Origin: Eledone cirrhosa
Lineage: Eukaryota
Assembly: GCA_964016885.1 (NCBI GenBank)
Contig: OZ024740.1
Location: forward strand, 270,134,001 to 270,198,000
Direction of reading: 5' to 3'
DNA: 64,000 nt
How positions within the stretch are numbered: position 1 is the first letter of the stretch; each line of letters begins with the position of its first letter. The notes beneath the pieces are model-generated. The model did not search any database, had not been told where the DNA came from, and saw only the letters and a program-made list of their open reading frames with translations. This document shows, piece by piece, positions 10,647 to 18,899 of the stretch. The position numbers and the translations under genes were made by a program.

Positions 10647-10690
<44 letters not shown>

Positions 10691-10869
10691 ATGTTTGTAT
10701 ATATATATATATACATATACATACATATATATATATGTATGTATGTGAATATAGACATAGAATATTCGAAAATATTCTGTATGTTTATAATAAACATTTT
10801 GAAGACCTAATCGCTATAGAATAGAATACGTCACGTATTACAATTAGATTCTCGATAAAAGCAAGGGAA

Positions 10870-10912
10870 GTAATCTACGCGTTTCATTCTTGTTAGAAAT
10901 CATCAGGACTAC
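10870..10912 (-). ncRNA. Minimal type I hammerhead ribozyme (first of 7 minus-strand copies, every 310 bp)
   Basis: Reverse complement of the motif at 13167-13209. Confidence 0.88.
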
Positions 10913-13166
10913 ATATCCAGTGCTTTTATCGAGAATGACACAGCTAGAGACTTATAGAATACTTAGCTGTGTACAGGAACTGGTTTGAAAGAGCGGTTGC
11001 CGGTCCGGCAGAAATTAGAAATTGGAATAAATGCTCTGAAATAGCGATATATATGTGAATATAGACATAGAATATTCGAAAATATTCTGTATGTTTATAA
11101 TAAACATTTTGAAGACCTAATCGCTATAGAATAGAATACGTCACGTATTACAATTAGATTCTCGATAAAAGCAAGGGAAGTAATCTACGCGTTTCATTCT
11201 TGTTAGAAATCATCAGGACTACATATCCAGTGCTTTTATCGAGAATGACACAGCTAGAGACTTATAGAATACTTAGCTGTGTACAGGAACTGGTTTGAAA
11301 GAGCGGTTGCCGGTCCGGCAGAAATTAGAAATTGGAATAAATGCTCTGAAATAGCGATATATATGTGAATATAGACATAGAATATTCGAAAATATTCTGT
11401 ATGTTTATAATAAACATTTTGAAGACCTAATCGCTATAGAATAGAATACGTCACGTATTACAATTAGATTCTCGATAAAAGCAAGGGAAGTAATCTACGC
11501 GTTTCATTCTTGTTAGAAATCATCAGGACTACATATCCAGTGCTTTTATCGAGAATGACACAGCTAGAGACTTATAGAATACTTAGCTGTGTACAGGAAC
11601 TGGTTTGAAAGAGCGGTTGCCGGTCCGGCAGAAATTAGAAATTGGAATAAATGCTCTGAAATAGCGATATATATGTGAATATAGACATAGAATATTCGAA
11701 AATATTCTGTATGTTTATAATAAACATTTTGAAGACCTAATCGCTATAGAATAGAATACGTCACGTATTACAATTAGATTCTCGATAAAAGCAAGGGAAG
11801 TAATCTACGCGTTTCATTCTTGTTAGAAATCATCAGGACTACATATCCAGTGCTTTTATCGAGAATGACACAGCTAGAGACTTATAGAATACTTAGCTGT
11901 GTACAGGAACTGGTTTGAAAGAGCGGTTGCCGGTCCGGCAGAAATTAGAAATTGGAATAAATGCTCTGAAATAGCGATATATATGTGAATATAGACATAG
12001 AATATTCGAAAATATTCTGTATGTTTATAATAAACATTTTGAAGACCTAATCGCTATAGAATAGAATACGTCACGTATTACAATTAGATTCTCGATAAAA
12101 GCAAGGGAAGTAATCTACGCGTTTCATTCTTGTTAGAAATCATCAGGACTACATATCCAGTGCTTTTATCGAGAATGACACAGCTAGAGACTTATAGAAT
12201 ACTTAGCTGTGTACAGGAACTGGTTTGAAAGAGCGGTTGCCGGTCCGGCAGAAATTAGAAATTGGAATAAATGCTCTGAAATAGCGATATATATGTGAAT
12301 ATAGACATAGAATATTCGAAAATATTCTGTATGTTTATAATAAACATTTTGAAGACCTAATCGCTATAGAATAGAATACGTCACGTATTACAATTAGATT
12401 CTCGATAAAAGCAAGGGAAGTAATCTACGCGTTTCATTCTTGTTAGAAATCATCAGGACTACATATCCAGTGCTTTTATCGAGAATGACACAGCTAGAGA
12501 CTTATAGAATACTTAGCTGTGTACAGGAACTGGTTTGAAAGAGCGGTTGCCGGTCCGGCAGAAATTAGAAATTGGAATAAATGCTCTGAAATAGCGATAT
12601 ATATGTGAATATAGACATAGAATATTCGAAAATATTCTGTATGTTTATAATAAACATTTTGAAGACCTAATCGCTATAGAATAGAATACGTCACGTATTA
12701 CAATTAGATTCTCGATAAAAGCAAGGGAAGTAATCTACGCGTTTCATTCTTGTTAGAAATCATCAGGACTACATATCCAGTGCTTTTATCGAGAATGACA
12801 CAGCTAGAGACTTATAGAATACTTAGCTGTGTACAGGAACTGGTTTGAAAGAGCGGTTGCCGGTCCGGCAGAAATTAGAAATTGGAATAAATGCTCTGAA
12901 ATAGCGATATATATGTGAATATAGACATAGAATATTCGAAAATATTCTGTATGTTTATAATAAACATTTTGAAGACCTAATCGCTATAGAATAGAATACG
13001 TCACGTATCTATGTCTATATTCACATATATATCGCTATTTCAGAGCATTTATTCCAATTTCTAATTTCTGCCGGACCGGCAACCGCTCTTTCAAACCAGT
13101 TCCTGTACACAGCTAAGTATTCTATAAGTCTCTAGCTGTGTCATTCTCGATAAAAGCACTGGATAT

Positions 13167-13209
13167 GTAGTCCTGATGATTTCTAACAAGAATGAAACGC
13201 GTAGATTAC
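13167..13209 (+). ncRNA. Minimal type I hammerhead ribozyme (first of 6 plus-strand copies, every 310 bp)
   Basis: GTAGTC-CTGATGA-t-TTC-taacaa-GAA-t-GAAA-CGCG-TA-GATTAC: 6-bp stem I, intact core, short stem II, palindromic stem III (ACGCGT), GUA cleavage triplet. Confidence 0.9.
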
Positions 13210-14933
13210 TTCCCTTGCTTTTATCGAGAATCTAATTGTAATACGTGACGTATTCTATTCTATAGCGATTAGGTCTTCAAAATGTTTATTATAAACATAC
13301 AGAATATTTTCGAATATTCTATGTCTATATTCACATATATATCGCTATTTCAGAGCATTTATTCCAATTTCTAATTTCTGCCGGACCGGCAACCGCTCTT
13401 TCAAACCAGTTCCTGTACACAGCTAAGTATTCTATAAGTCTCTAGCTGTGTCATTCTCGATAAAAGCACTGGATATGTAGTCCTGATGATTTCTAACAAG
13501 AATGAAACGCGTAGATTACTTCCCTTGCTTTTATCGAGAATCTAATTGTAATACGTGACGTATTCTATTCTATAGCGATTAGGTCTTCAAAATGTTTATT
13601 ATAAACATACAGAATATTTTCGAATATTCTATGTCTATATTCACATATATATCGCTATTTCAGAGCATTTATTCCAATTTCTAATTTCTGCCGGACCGGC
13701 AACCGCTCTTTCAAACCAGTTCCTGTACACAGCTAAGTATTCTATAAGTCTCTAGCTGTGTCATTCTCGATAAAAGCACTGGATATGTAGTCCTGATGAT
13801 TTCTAACAAGAATGAAACGCGTAGATTACTTCCCTTGCTTTTATCGAGAATCTAATTGTAATACGTGACGTATTCTATTCTATAGCGATTAGGTCTTCAA
13901 AATGTTTATTATAAACATACAGAATATTTTCGAATATTCTATGTCTATATTCACATATATATCGCTATTTCAGAGCATTTATTCCAATTTCTAATTTCTG
14001 CCGGACCGGCAACCGCTCTTTCAAACCAGTTCCTGTACACAGCTAAGTATTCTATAAGTCTCTAGCTGTGTCATTCTCGATAAAAGCACTGGATATGTAG
14101 TCCTGATGATTTCTAACAAGAATGAAACGCGTAGATTACTTCCCTTGCTTTTATCGAGAATCTAATTGTAATACGTGACGTATTCTATTCTATAGCGATT
14201 AGGTCTTCAAAATGTTTATTATAAACATACAGAATATTTTCGAATATTCTATGTCTATATTCACATATATATCGCTATTTCAGAGCATTTATTCCAATTT
14301 CTAATTTCTGCCGGACCGGCAACCGCTCTTTCAAACCAGTTCCTGTACACAGCTAAGTATTCTATAAGTCTCTAGCTGTGTCATTCTCGATAAAAGCACT
14401 GGATATGTAGTCCTGATGATTTCTAACAAGAATGAAACGCGTAGATTACTTCCCTTGCTTTTATCGAGAATCTAATTGTAATACGTGACGTATTCTATTC
14501 TATAGCGATTAGGTCTTCAAAATGTTTATTATAAACATACAGAATATTTTCGAATATTCTATGTCTATATTCACATATATATCGCTATTTCAGAGCATTT
14601 ATTCCAATTTCTAATTTCTGCCGGACCGGCAACCGCTCTTTCAAACCAGTTCCTGTACACAGCTAAGTATTCTATAAGTCTCTAGCTGTGTCATTCTCGA
14701 TAAAAGCACTGGATATGTAGTCCTGATGATTTCTAACAAGAATGAAACGCGTAGATTACTTCCCTTGCTTTTATCGAGAATCTAATTGTAATACGTGACG
14801 TATTCTATTCTATAGCGATTAGGTCTTCAAAATGTTTATTATAAACATACAGAATATTTTCGAATATTCTATGTCTATATTCACATATATATCGCTATTT
14901 CAGAGCATTTATTCCAATTTCTATATGTATGTA

Positions 14934-15034
<101 letters not shown>

Positions 15035-15042
15035 GTATATAT

Positions 15043-15105
<63 letters not shown>

Positions 15106-15118
15106 ATTTTATAGAAGG

Positions 15119-15169
15119 AGCTTCTACAGGACTAGTACTGTTTCATTCAGATGAAATCTTCAGGAAGCT
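15119..15169 (-). ncRNA. Hammerhead ribozyme in the inverted pLTR
   Basis: Reverse complement of 17513-17563. Confidence 0.85.
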
Positions 15170-15293
15170 GGGTGTCATATTAAGTTCTGGTATTTATACA
15201 TTTAGGTAGTGGTAAGGGAGGGGTGGTGGCTGGGTGGGGGGGTGTGTGCGTGTGTGTGTGTGGGGGGGGGGGGGGGGGGGGGGTAGGATGGTA

Positions 15294-16080
15294 TTTAGAG
15301 CGGCAGCCCCCTATTACAACGCGGCCCTGGCCCGCAGCGGCTTTAGAGATAAGATCACCTATCTTAGTATAGCCTCACGCCCACCCAGGAAGAATAGGCG
15401 AAGGCACATTAGCTGGTACAACCCCCCCCCCCCCCTTCAACCGCGAAGTTTCAACACCTGTAGCTAAAATTTTCTTCACTCTCTTACAAAAACATTCCTC
15501 ACCCAATATAGCTACTATACTATCCTTAATAAGAATACCATTAGACTCTCTTACTCTACCTCACCTAATCTAGCTAGGAACTTAGCCAACAATAACATCA
15601 AGAAGCTAAATAAGTCTACTTTTTCCGAAGCCCATCCAGCAACCGATAGCAACTGCAATTGCCCTGATAAGACTACCTGCCCTCTCAACAACTGTCTAAA
15701 AAAAGATCTCGTCTATATATGCGATGTACTCTCAGGCCCTGATGAAAAAAAACTCGTACATCGGGATGACTTCTAACAGTTTTAAGACTCGCTGGTACGC
15801 CCACACACATTCGTTCCGGCGCCCAGACAAATCTAACCAAACTACACTCGCCGCCCACATCTGGCACCTTAAAAGGAACTCCATCCCCTTCAAGACCCAA
15901 TGGAGACTACTCCAGAGAGCGCGATCCTACACGGGAGGCCATAATTGCTGTGACCTCTGTATCTCCGAGAGCTATGAGATTCTATTCGCCAAAGGCCCTC
16001 TCCTCAACAAGATCTCGGAACACTCCCCTAATTGCATGCACGAGAACTATGCAAATTATAAAAACTACAGACCCACCCGG
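15294..16080 (+). pseudogene. Penelope-like RT C-terminus, Cys-rich linker and GIY-YIG endonuclease (frameshifted)
   Basis: AAPYYNAALARSGF, RRHISWYNPP, NKNTIRLSYSTSPN, CNCPDKTTCPLNNCL..LVY, YIGMTSNSFKTRWYAH, TTLAAHIW, CDLCISE. Confidence 0.88.
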
Positions 16081-16876
16081 CCCCCCCGACTGACCCCCCC
16101 CCTATCACCACCCCACCCCGTCCCCCATCCCAATTCTGTCCCTCCATCTCTCATTATTACCCTCTTTCCTCCCCTCTATCTCTCATTATTACCTTCTTTC
16201 CTCCCCTCCAGGTCTTATATATTTTGTTGTATGCCTCTGAGTAAAGTTCCGTGGCCGCACACACAAATTCACGTATATACCTACTCATGTTTGCATACTT
16301 GCAGTCATGAACTGCTGCACGCACACGTTCGTGATTTTTTTATCTATTTATCTGTATATTTATTTATTTATTTATTTATTTATTTAGTTACTTTATTTAC
16401 TTATTTATTTATGTATCTATTTATTTATTTTATTATTTATTTATTTATTTACTTATTTACTGGTTTATTTGTTTATCTGATTGTTTGTTTGTTAGTTAAC
16501 TCATTCATTTATTTATTAATTTATGAGTGAATGATTAGGTAATGAATATATAAAAGATAAAAGATAGGTAACGAATAGTGAATGGTAAATAGTAAATAAT
16601 AAATAGTAATTAATTACTTGATGATAATATTAATAACTTAGTAGTGATAATAATTATTTTAATCATCTATCAGGCCCAGTTTAAAATTTTAAATTTTAAA
16701 TTTAAAATTTGTCCCACTACCATTATACTATAGATACATGTATGAGTGCGAACGAGTGCGTGTTTGTGCATATGCGTTTATGTATACTTATTTGTATGTA
16801 TGTATGTGTATGTATGCGTGTGTGCTTGTATATGTGTATGTGTATGTATGTATATATGTATATATGTGTATGTATG

Positions 16877-16907
<31 letters not shown>

Positions 16908-16960
16908 GTGTGTATCTGTATATATATGTGTATACGCACACACACATGTGTGTGTATATA

Positions 16961-17000
<40 letters not shown>

Positions 17001-17019
17001 AAAGTGTGTAAGTATGCAC

Positions 17020-17055
<36 letters not shown>

Positions 17056-17512
17056 AAGTGTTTTTGTATGTGGTTGTGAGTATGTAAATATATTTTATTA
17101 TTTCCATTCTACAAAAACACTCTGGCCACCTGTGGCTTGTATGTTAACTTGATCACTCACCTCAGTCTGTGCCATGATTCGGTCTTGTTTAATTTCTATT
17201 ACCAACCCACCTAAAAAAATTTCCCTACTATATATCTGTTGAATTACTATTCTTGGGGTTTTTATTTATTTATTAAATTTATTTATTTTCTTTCTTTATT
17301 TACTCATTTATCTATTTATTCATTTATTTATTTATTTACTTATTTATTTATTTCAAAAAAGCATTCTGGCTAATTGACCACTCCTCATAGAAAAAACGGC
17401 TTGTGCCATGTTGTGGTCTTGTGTATCTAAATACCATCCTCCCCCCCCCCAGCCACCACACCTCCCTTACCACTACCTAAATGTATAAATACCAGAACTT
17501 AATATGACACCC

Positions 17513-17563
17513 AGCTTCCTGAAGATTTCATCTGAATGAAACAGTACTAGTCCTGTAGAAGCT
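17513..17563 (+). ncRNA. Type I hammerhead ribozyme in the Penelope pLTR
   Basis: AGCTTC-CTGAAGA-t-TTC-atct-GAA-t-GAAA-CAG-tactagtc-CTG-TA-GAAGCT, followed by AATAAA. Confidence 0.88.
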
Positions 17564-17649
17564 CCTTCTATAAAATAAACATTTTTTACTCTGCCATGTA
17601 TTGAGTACCTTACTTAGTGTGGTTATCCCCGACTCAACCCGGGACCTAC

Positions 17650-17686
<37 letters not shown>

Positions 17687-17698
17687 CAATTGTATATA

Positions 17699-18097
17699 TA
17701 TATTAATAAGAGGAATTCCAACTTTGTCTGATTTACTCGTTTTATTTACAATCCTTTAAAATATATATAATATGGTATTATAATGAAATAGTATGATAGA
17801 ATATTAAATTCTAAGTGTTAATTGAACAAGTACTTTCATGCTTTCGCAATCTTCAGGTTCATGATATGTGGTGACAGTCGAGTTTGCAATTTTCAACTGT
17901 TGAAAATTGCAAACTCGACTGTCACCACATATCATGAACCTGAAGATTGCGAAAGCATGAAAGTACTTGTTCAATTAACACTTAGAATTTAATATTCTAT
18001 CATACTATTTCATTATAATACCATATTATATATATTTTAAAGGATTGTAAATAAAACGAGTAAATCAGACACAGTTGGAATTCCTCTTATTAATATA
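17699..18097. repeat. ~400-bp near-perfect palindrome of a pLTR-like sequence
   Basis: Centre at 17898, arms about 199 bp, one mismatch seen. Confidence 0.95.
17935..17973 (+). ncRNA. Minimal hammerhead ribozyme (mirror copy 17823-17861, -)
   Basis: TGAAC-CTGAAGA-t-TGC-gaaa-GCA-t-GAAA-GTAC-TT-GTTCA, with palindromic stem III. Confidence 0.85.
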
Positions 18098-18143
18098 ATC
18101 TTCTATACACAATCATACACACCCGTGTATATTTACCTATCTA

Positions 18144-18246: not shown

Positions 18247-18386
18247 GGTAGGTATGTAACTGCAGTTATAGGCGTCGCGCCCTTCGAAGAACTCAATGAG
18301 GTTACGAGTTCCATCTCGTGTGGGTTGTATTCCAGAGTTAAGGTGACTCAAGTGTGCAGTTTCACCAGAAGACCCAAACGCAACGC

Positions 18387-18680
18387 AGTGACCGAGGATA
18401 TATATCTGCAGGGACCAAACACAACACCGTGACCGAGGATATTGTTGGATGGCACAAACACAACACCATGACAGAGGATATATTTGCAGGGACCAAACAC
18501 AATACCGTGACCGAGGATATTGGTGGATGGCACAAACACAACACCATGACAGAGGATATATCTGCAGGGACCAAACACAACACCATGACAGAGGATATAT
18601 CTGCAGGGACCAAACACAACACCATGACAGAGGATATATCTGCAGGGACCAAACACAACACCGTAACCGAGGATATCGTT
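18387..18680. repeat. 39-bp minisatellite (~7.5 units, two unit types)
   Basis: AC(A/C)GAGGATATATCTGCAGGGACCAAACACAACACC(A/G)TG and the variant ACCGAGGATATTG(T/G)TGGATGGCACAAACACAACACCATG. Confidence 0.9.
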
Positions 18681-18899
18681 GCAGTCGGTAACAGTTGGAT
18701 ACACAATGACAAAGGCGAAATAGGATCATGTTCAATGCGCCCTACTCTAAACACGCTTGTTCAAGGCCTTGGGCGAATCTTTCTCCCACTTGCACAGGAA
18801 TCACAGTTGTGTTGCTGGAGATGGTGGTGGTGGTGGTCATGCTGCAAGCTTGACTTCGATTCTACTTGATTTCTGCCCCCCCCCCCACATCTCTCTCTA

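Follow-up and report, generated by a model that had tools for sequence, protein, structure and literature searches.

Retrozymes and Penelope-like elements

The closest described relatives of the sequence analyzed here are the metazoan non-LTR retrozymes which, in the accounts accessible to us (Cervera and de la Pena 2020, PMC7229834; Li, Clavereau and Pollet 2026, bioRxiv 10.64898/2026.07.22.740005), form tandem arrays of GC-poor, non-coding units, each about 300 bp long and bearing one type I hammerhead ribozyme, with thousands of copies per genome. Both accounts propose circular RNA intermediates and mobilization by Penelope-like elements (PLEs) for these retrozymes, and the accessible text of the preprint puts forward in-place satellite amplification as the route by which arrays form, and reports homology to pLTRs. 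Expression and circles have been shown for coral retrozymes, in the portion of that literature we could consult, whereas the Eledone cirrhosa family is described here at the sequence level.

As for the PLEs themselves, the available portions of Craig et al. 2021 (PMC8557442) report that their insertions often consist of an inverted, 5'-truncated copy with a tail of 30-40 bp at one end, and that several PLE clades target (TA)n. In the available text of Frangieh et al. 2024 (PMC11167929), a purified PLE protein cleaves both strands of its target and extends each of them, beginning at two neighboring sites within the RNA, and these sites delimit the tail. A further parallel is offered by non-autonomous Chlamys elements, such as MRC1, which PMC8557442 (in the same portions) presents as PLE dependants with multicopy head-to-tail insertions.

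A two-armed retrozyme array in Eledone cirrhosa

The window, that is, the whole stretch of DNA that was analyzed, comprises 64,000 nucleotides of the 3.0-Gb genome of Eledone cirrhosa (GCA_964016885.1, contig OZ024740.1, positions 270,134,001 to 270,198,000), and includes a SINE that we take to be octopod. Between positions 10742 and 14923 lies an array of 13.5 units of 310 bp (34% GC) with 13 exact hammerhead cores and zero internal differences from the reference unit. The longest stop-free stretch in the unit spans 59 codons, and the unit contains neither an ORF nor a reverse transcriptase (RT) or GIY-YIG frame. An initial annotation had reported about 13.5 apparently identical non-coding units with 13 intact hammerheads, and these coordinates hold; it did not mention the inversion, by which the array is not one head-to-tail run but two inverted arms meeting back to back:

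10742..13008, minus strand: left arm, 7.3 units with 7 hammerheads; outer (3') end at unit position 134, site A
13008..14923, plus strand: right arm, 6.2 units with 6 hammerheads; outer (3') end at unit position 170, site B
13008..13008: point at which the arms, both truncated at the 5' end, meet back to back (unit positions 38 and 115, with one base common to both)
14884..14923, plus strand: the stretch between sites A and B, or "tail", which the window insertion has only on its right side
14851..14870, plus strand: 8-bp hairpin directly 5' of site A, as found in the final unit
10647..10744 and 14922..15102: left and right halves of the target, each a (TA)n-type microsatellite
10732..10744 (plus strand) and 14922-14934: left and right copies of a candidate 13-bp target-site duplication, uncertain, lying inside a TA-rich repeat

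Unit numbering starts at the predicted cut site, so that position 1 is 13204, and sites A and B are 35 nt apart in the unit. By its sequence features, the element is a non-LTR retrozyme, a known class: all 13 cores are intact, the non-coding unit falls within 150-450 bp and below 50% GC, and many dispersed copies exist in the genome. Its PLE insertion footprint is new relative to the literature that we found. Term searches of the main texts of PMC7229834 and bioRxiv 10.64898/2026.07.22.740005 gave no mention of inverted two-armed insertions, fixed ends or a tail, and in the main texts of the open literature searched, neither the 310-bp family nor retrozyme arrays with two arms were found to be described.

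The hammerhead ribozyme

The ribozyme and the paired elements around it are represented by one example in the right arm:

13167..13209, plus strand: type I hammerhead, one example of 13; cleavage, predicted only, after 13203
13167-13172/13204-13209, plus strand: helix I, 6 bp
13173-13179, plus strand: core CUGAUGA
13180-13193, plus strand: helix II, 4 bp, first pair U.U
13194-13197, plus strand: GAAA, followed by a palindromic 2-bp helix III
13143..13231, plus strand: 16-bp extension of helix I, 13143-13158 pairing with 13216-13231
13107..13141, plus strand: 9-bp hairpin (13107-13115/13133-13141), part of the predicted monomer fold

The 16-bp pairing, the 9-bp hairpin and the GUA ending at 13203 had all been pointed out in the initial annotation and are all present in the sequence. 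It also spoke of a Penelope-type minimal hammerhead with a palindromic stem III. By the definitions in the consulted part of PMC4209133, a minimal hammerhead is one without helix III and loop 3, both of which an ordinary metazoan type I ribozyme has. Because a 2-bp helix III with a palindromic loop is present here, the ribozyme falls outside the minimal (min-HHR) class and, by its sequence, is an ordinary metazoan type I hammerhead under these definitions; the term "minimal" has to be dropped. The proposal that such a ribozyme acts as a dimer agrees with folding predictions, in which two copies form a dimer with an intermolecular 6-bp helix III (-68.7 vs 2 x -31.3 kcal/mol). Compared with shuffled sequences, the 89-nt ribozyme domain folds far better (z -6.5, 0/200), as does the monomer (z -4.4, 0/100). 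An Rfam search of the window returned no match reaching the gathering score, the weak Hammerhead_HH9 match at 13158-13223 having 19.2 bits (E 0.025) against a cut-off of 52.

Judging by the pattern of sequence variation, the hammerhead fold is under selection, because fixed variants keep pairing and because paired positions covary. Among the 85 loci with at least 2 full units, locus-wide substitutions at paired or core positions preserve pairing 6:0, against 3:16 for single-unit substitutions (Fisher p 0.0005). The pair-breaking change G14A that is fixed in locus L240 came from a targeted search and stands outside this count. Across 6 related-family sequences, a set that is small and related by descent, 18/34 pairs are changed on both sides (shuffles 0/500; slid controls at most 5). 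The core pair alternates between C3:G8 and U3:A8 among related families, and across sister families 9/16 pairs of the helix I extension are altered on both sides. The hairpin before site A shows a comparable pattern, its stem being kept in the sister families, with two compensatory pairs, while the loops differ, and it is likely to form part of an enzyme-recognition signal.

A strict rule for the two ends

The exact 32-nt core pattern has 4,584 matches genome-wide, with 0 for the reversed control. Patterns for the outer ends yield 761 site-B ends on the forward strand and, by a stricter pattern, 570 site-A ends. All of these are counts of pattern matches; as the reverse-strand count of B ends is inflated by entries listed repeatedly, the estimate of about 1,500 dispersed loci is derived from the 761 forward-strand B ends. 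Dispersed arrays were thus rightly anticipated in the initial annotation; the permuted ends that it expected are not seen, the outer ends being fixed at two sites 35 nt apart.

The survey comprised 92 loci from a single contig, C1. The ribozyme core pattern led to 11 of them, the array in the window among these; the B-end pattern led to 60 and the A-end pattern to 21, including 7 selected for the lack of a listed B end in their vicinity. Two back-to-back arms make up 81 of the 92 loci; the other 11 are single-armed, one of them being cut by an assembly gap. In every one of the 81 two-armed loci, the outer ends are of two kinds, one lying at unit positions 126-139 (site A) and its counterpart at 165-172 (site B), with no A+A or B+B combination among them. 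A (TA)4 sequence is present on both flanks in 76/81 two-armed loci, a count to be read with the fact that 81 of the 92 loci were picked by a pattern requiring TA at one end. Arms have a median length of 3.7 units and a maximum of 45, and 145/162 exceed one unit. The inner ends are scattered all round the unit with no pile-up at the cut site; at 67 inner junctions, the arms overlap by 1-8 nt in 36 cases, are joined bluntly in 11, and are separated by extra bases in 20. Candidate target-site duplications of at least 10 bp were found at 12/81 loci, compared with a mean of 5.8 and a maximum of 12 in shuffled data, with one of 15 bp at L034; for non-LTR retrozymes, the threshold is >4 bp where a duplication is present.

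The survey also brought up several irregular loci and related repeats. At L037 (3099-3370), a 272-nt unrelated sequence that has no match among the examined loci is caught between the arms; neither this insert nor the sequences flanking 10 single-armed loci on their inner side pointed to a partner. The insertion at L041 is complex, its junction being made up of four segments with two inversions. There are at least 3 sister retrozyme families, about 65% identical and with a unit length near 320 bp (L034 9130-9963; L046; L089; L091; L147; L176; L184; L192); they have the same tail, the same two end types where the ends are seen, and different hammerheads, two of them with a U3:A8 core. A 312-bp subfamily carries G14A (for example, at G000 C5:52393388 and C14:15550939), and one array mixes 310- and 312-bp spacing. 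A further repeat with a hammerhead recurs every 470 bp or so (L136, at 7242 and 7714 in minus-strand count; L174; L162) and shows weak similarity in the module before site A. A search of sequencing runs listed no RNA run with the unit, which says nothing for or against expression. Three sequencing runs of unknown kind each contain one 340-nt contig matching the unit, as would be equally expected from tandem DNA and from a circle.

A Penelope-like footprint

The features of PLE-type insertions recur throughout the survey: an inverted truncated copy in 81/92 loci, a tail at one end only in 81/81, and a (TA)n target in 76/81. The A+B rule would then reflect two primings of a single event, one for each DNA end, and such PLE-driven two-ended priming is, in our assessment, highly likely. 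We know of no other process that yields this end rule. The insertion is assigned to the PLE type because the footprint matches both the inverted copy with its tail and the two-site action of the purified PLE protein on both strands. The sequence evidence thus supports the interpretation of the window array as a young retrozyme-type element with a PLE footprint that was inserted as one event, and to this extent the earlier suggestion of a recent single insertion with a Penelope signature stands.

In L1 twin priming, two priming events give rise to an inverted 5' part. The present case differs in that each priming would start from its own fixed site inside a repeated unit, and either arm can extend over many units. 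The likeness to EN+ PLEs, in the available text of PMC8557442 and PMC11167929, extends to the inverted 5'-truncated copy at the 5' side, (TA)n targeting, a one-end tail of 30-40 nt, and a hammerhead upstream of the priming sites. Unlike those elements as described there, the present family has no RT or endonuclease frame, each arm consists of head-to-tail 310-nt units, and the A+B rule appears strict (81/81). The algal MRC1-type Chlamys elements differ in that, within the accessible portions of PMC8557442, their 3' ends are similar to those of their autonomous partners and most of the Chlamys elements are without hammerheads.

Candidate PLE partners

Young Hydra-type PLEs are present in the genome, with frames of 750-820 codons and CxCx5C, DKT and RWR motifs (copies L131, L134 and L136), and so are several Neptune-type families. 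The window itself contains a Hydra-type PLE insertion at 15105-17650, a truncated copy that adjoins the array and has inverted terminal repeats; it has hammerheads at 15163 (minus) and 17519 (plus) and a GIY-YIG fragment at about 15470-16080, and one of its ends is short and the other bears a 70-nt tail. This neighbor was considered as a partner and rejected: its helix II is similar but its tail, of about 70 nt, is different. Among the matches listed for other Hydra-like fragments, and among those listed for Neptune-type families (a GIY-YIG search, with 30 of 150 matches, plus 19 long-frame matches), there was no homologous terminal repeat. The tail or hairpin of the retrozyme could be recognized by sequence in none of the sampled Hydra-type and Neptune-type PLE families. 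One Neptune-type family has a similar layout, with a TA run after site A, a 45-nt tail and a GAAAC-NN-GUA helix III, a likeness that loses significance when the TA run is left out; the best likeness of the tail to any sampled PLE family then has a p of 0.34. The sequence comparisons thus lend no homology to the idea that the retrozyme is a pLTR derivative of a resident PLE among the sampled families, and the absence of a homologous pLTR among the sampled PLEs sets it apart from the retrozymes of bioRxiv 10.64898/2026.07.22.740005, as these are presented in the text available.

Other hammerhead-bearing repeats were noted along the way. Window positions 17690-18100 are occupied by two terminal repeats in fold-back arrangement, whose hammerheads lie at 17856 (minus) and 17940 (plus); this repeat is also found in L220, behind the GIY-YIG frame of a Neptune-type PLE; Neptune-type PLE terminal-repeat hammerheads with a U3:A8 core occur in L191-L218, L221, L230, L237 and L238. 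A 39-bp minisatellite with about 8 copies occupies window positions 18374-18684.

Circle or linear multimer?

So what was the template? The 65 loci that contain 3 or more full units present 25 different locus-wide haplotypes, and 31 of these loci show complete homogeneity. In 39/47 loci the majority haplotype is identical between the two arms; in the other 8, all fixed variants are common to both arms and a one- or two-unit variant differs, L063 excepted. The 308-nt lineage, which was fully listed (78 matches, 9 loci), offers a closed set for comparison: T248C is found in 5/5 full units of L186 and is absent from the other 8 loci, and T157C is fixed in both arms of L184 and occurs only there, although such single-locus haplotypes may have had a source on another haplotype. 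Unit-level variants are common to different loci in only 4/71 cases and never in the same register, except for A276G. C210A, taken for a private variant of L056, was dropped as such, being a subfamily of 327 units.

A mosaic array of 46 monomers shows a different organization. It is the long arm of the two-armed locus L167-L173 (G000 C1, about 217.795-217.810 Mb) and contains, in the register of the cut site, 8 monomers with G14A+C210A, never two adjacent; locus L240 repeats this monomer on both arms, and the C210A-only haplotype has no matching cut-site monomer in the mosaic. L167-L173 is a locally expanded array and may have served as the source of other loci; between it and L240, copying may have gone in either direction.

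On the basis of these sequence patterns, a circular monomer is the somewhat favored template, slightly more so once PLE-driven priming is granted. Because the cDNA runs repeatedly through the cut site of a ribozyme that is under selection, the simplest scenario is that the RNA was cut and ligated first and copied afterwards. The circle falls short of being established because four loci are mixed in ways that a linear template, or conversion at a later stage, would explain: in L189 one variant is placed as expected from a single linear template at 9/9 positions and from a two-unit circle at 8/9, in L090 one variant is equally distant from both outer ends, and in L063 and L067 the haplotype switches within an arm. 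The suggestion of the initial annotation that the array was copied round a circle is accordingly retained as the preferred reading only, with some loci compatible with linear multi-unit RNA.

The same A/B two-ended priming by a PLE could have acted on an uncut, linear multi-unit transcript of homogeneous source arrays, the ribozyme being kept for some other step, which may be the freeing of RNA from read-through transcripts. We regard this as a tentative contender, to which the four mixed loci lend weight, as does the finding that uncut RNA is the dominant substrate of the anole PLE in vitro, with the ribozyme dispensable (PMC11167929, in the text available). Further points count against the circle: only 1/9 of Xenopus retrozyme dimers were cleaved, the common C210A-only haplotype is missing from the mosaic array as a cut-site monomer, and none of the sampled PLEs has the retrozyme tail. 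There is also a weak excess of arms that stop at the start site of the other arm (13/61 within 10 nt vs 8 expected, p 0.05), which is absent at 20 or 30 nt and includes one locus counted twice. Nevertheless, a linear template requires a separate homogeneous source for each of many haplotypes, including the single-locus ones in the fully listed 308-nt lineage; the scarcity of unit-level variants common to loci, and of a common register among them, argues against it; and changes that break the ribozyme should help a linear template, yet none is locus-wide among the 85 loci. The circular and the linear routes may also both operate.

The remaining alternatives depart further from the circular reading. 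A PLE insertion of approximately one unit per arm, amplified in place by unequal crossover and with its arms homogenized by gene conversion, would follow the satellite route proposed in the preprint on non-LTR retrozymes, and the longest arrays do show local duplications, with variants repeating at intervals of 4-8 units (L036, L037, L051, L084 and the 46-monomer array). However, the arrays that did expand locally are mosaic rather than homogeneous, most arms comprise several units at near-zero divergence, and locus-wide variants are common to both arms, so that this explanation appears unlikely; here, in distinction from the local amplification described in the accessible text of bioRxiv 10.64898/2026.07.22.740005, the arrays look multi-unit from birth. 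Less probable still is an inverted array produced by fold-back reads in sequencing or assembly, or by DNA-level fold-back without reverse transcription. Long inverted repeats are hard to assemble, and the junction in the window is taken from the assembly; fold-back, however, predicts mirror-symmetric arms, whereas the observed arms differ in length and phase, and the A/B end rule is seen in 81/81 loci with unique flanks. Furthermore, contigs of one public sequencing run, possibly from the assembly's own sample, carry TA tails at the same two unit positions.

A scenario for insertion and its implications

The reading that we prefer, with a rough probability of 0.52, is a recent single insertion of a non-coding hammerhead retroelement through two-ended priming by a PLE, probably rolling on a circular 310-nt monomer. 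Under this scenario, a multi-unit transcript would be cut by hammerheads folded as dimers, and the released monomers would be ligated into circles. A PLE protein would bind near the hairpin before site A and cut both strands of a TA repeat; the two DNA ends would prime separately, one at each of sites A and B, each cDNA would run several laps of the template, and the two cDNA ends would finally be joined via short overlaps or a few extra bases. In the rolling-circle version, a PLE dimer would cut both strands and both enzymes would roll on a single circle. That each locus is the frozen product of two-ended rolling-circle reverse transcription of one ribozyme-made 310-nt circle is, to our mind, about an even bet.

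In the literature that we found, the spread of animal retrozymes via circular RNA and PLE enzymes is proposed rather than demonstrated, and PLEs pose the second question of how their inverted-plus-tail insertions arise. The family described here offers a substrate that is very young, of high copy number and non-coding; its two putative priming sites are mapped, its hairpin is conserved and its A+B rule is strict, so that both questions can be addressed with a 310-nt RNA and purified PLE protein. For the genome of Eledone cirrhosa, the family adds an estimated 13,000 or so ribozyme units (about 1,500 loci x about 8.5 units) in the form of large inverted repeats. If the rolling-circle reading is true, the genome would preserve about 1,500 instances of a viroid-like circle being copied into its chromosomes, and the offset between two primings of one event would account for the PLE "tail".
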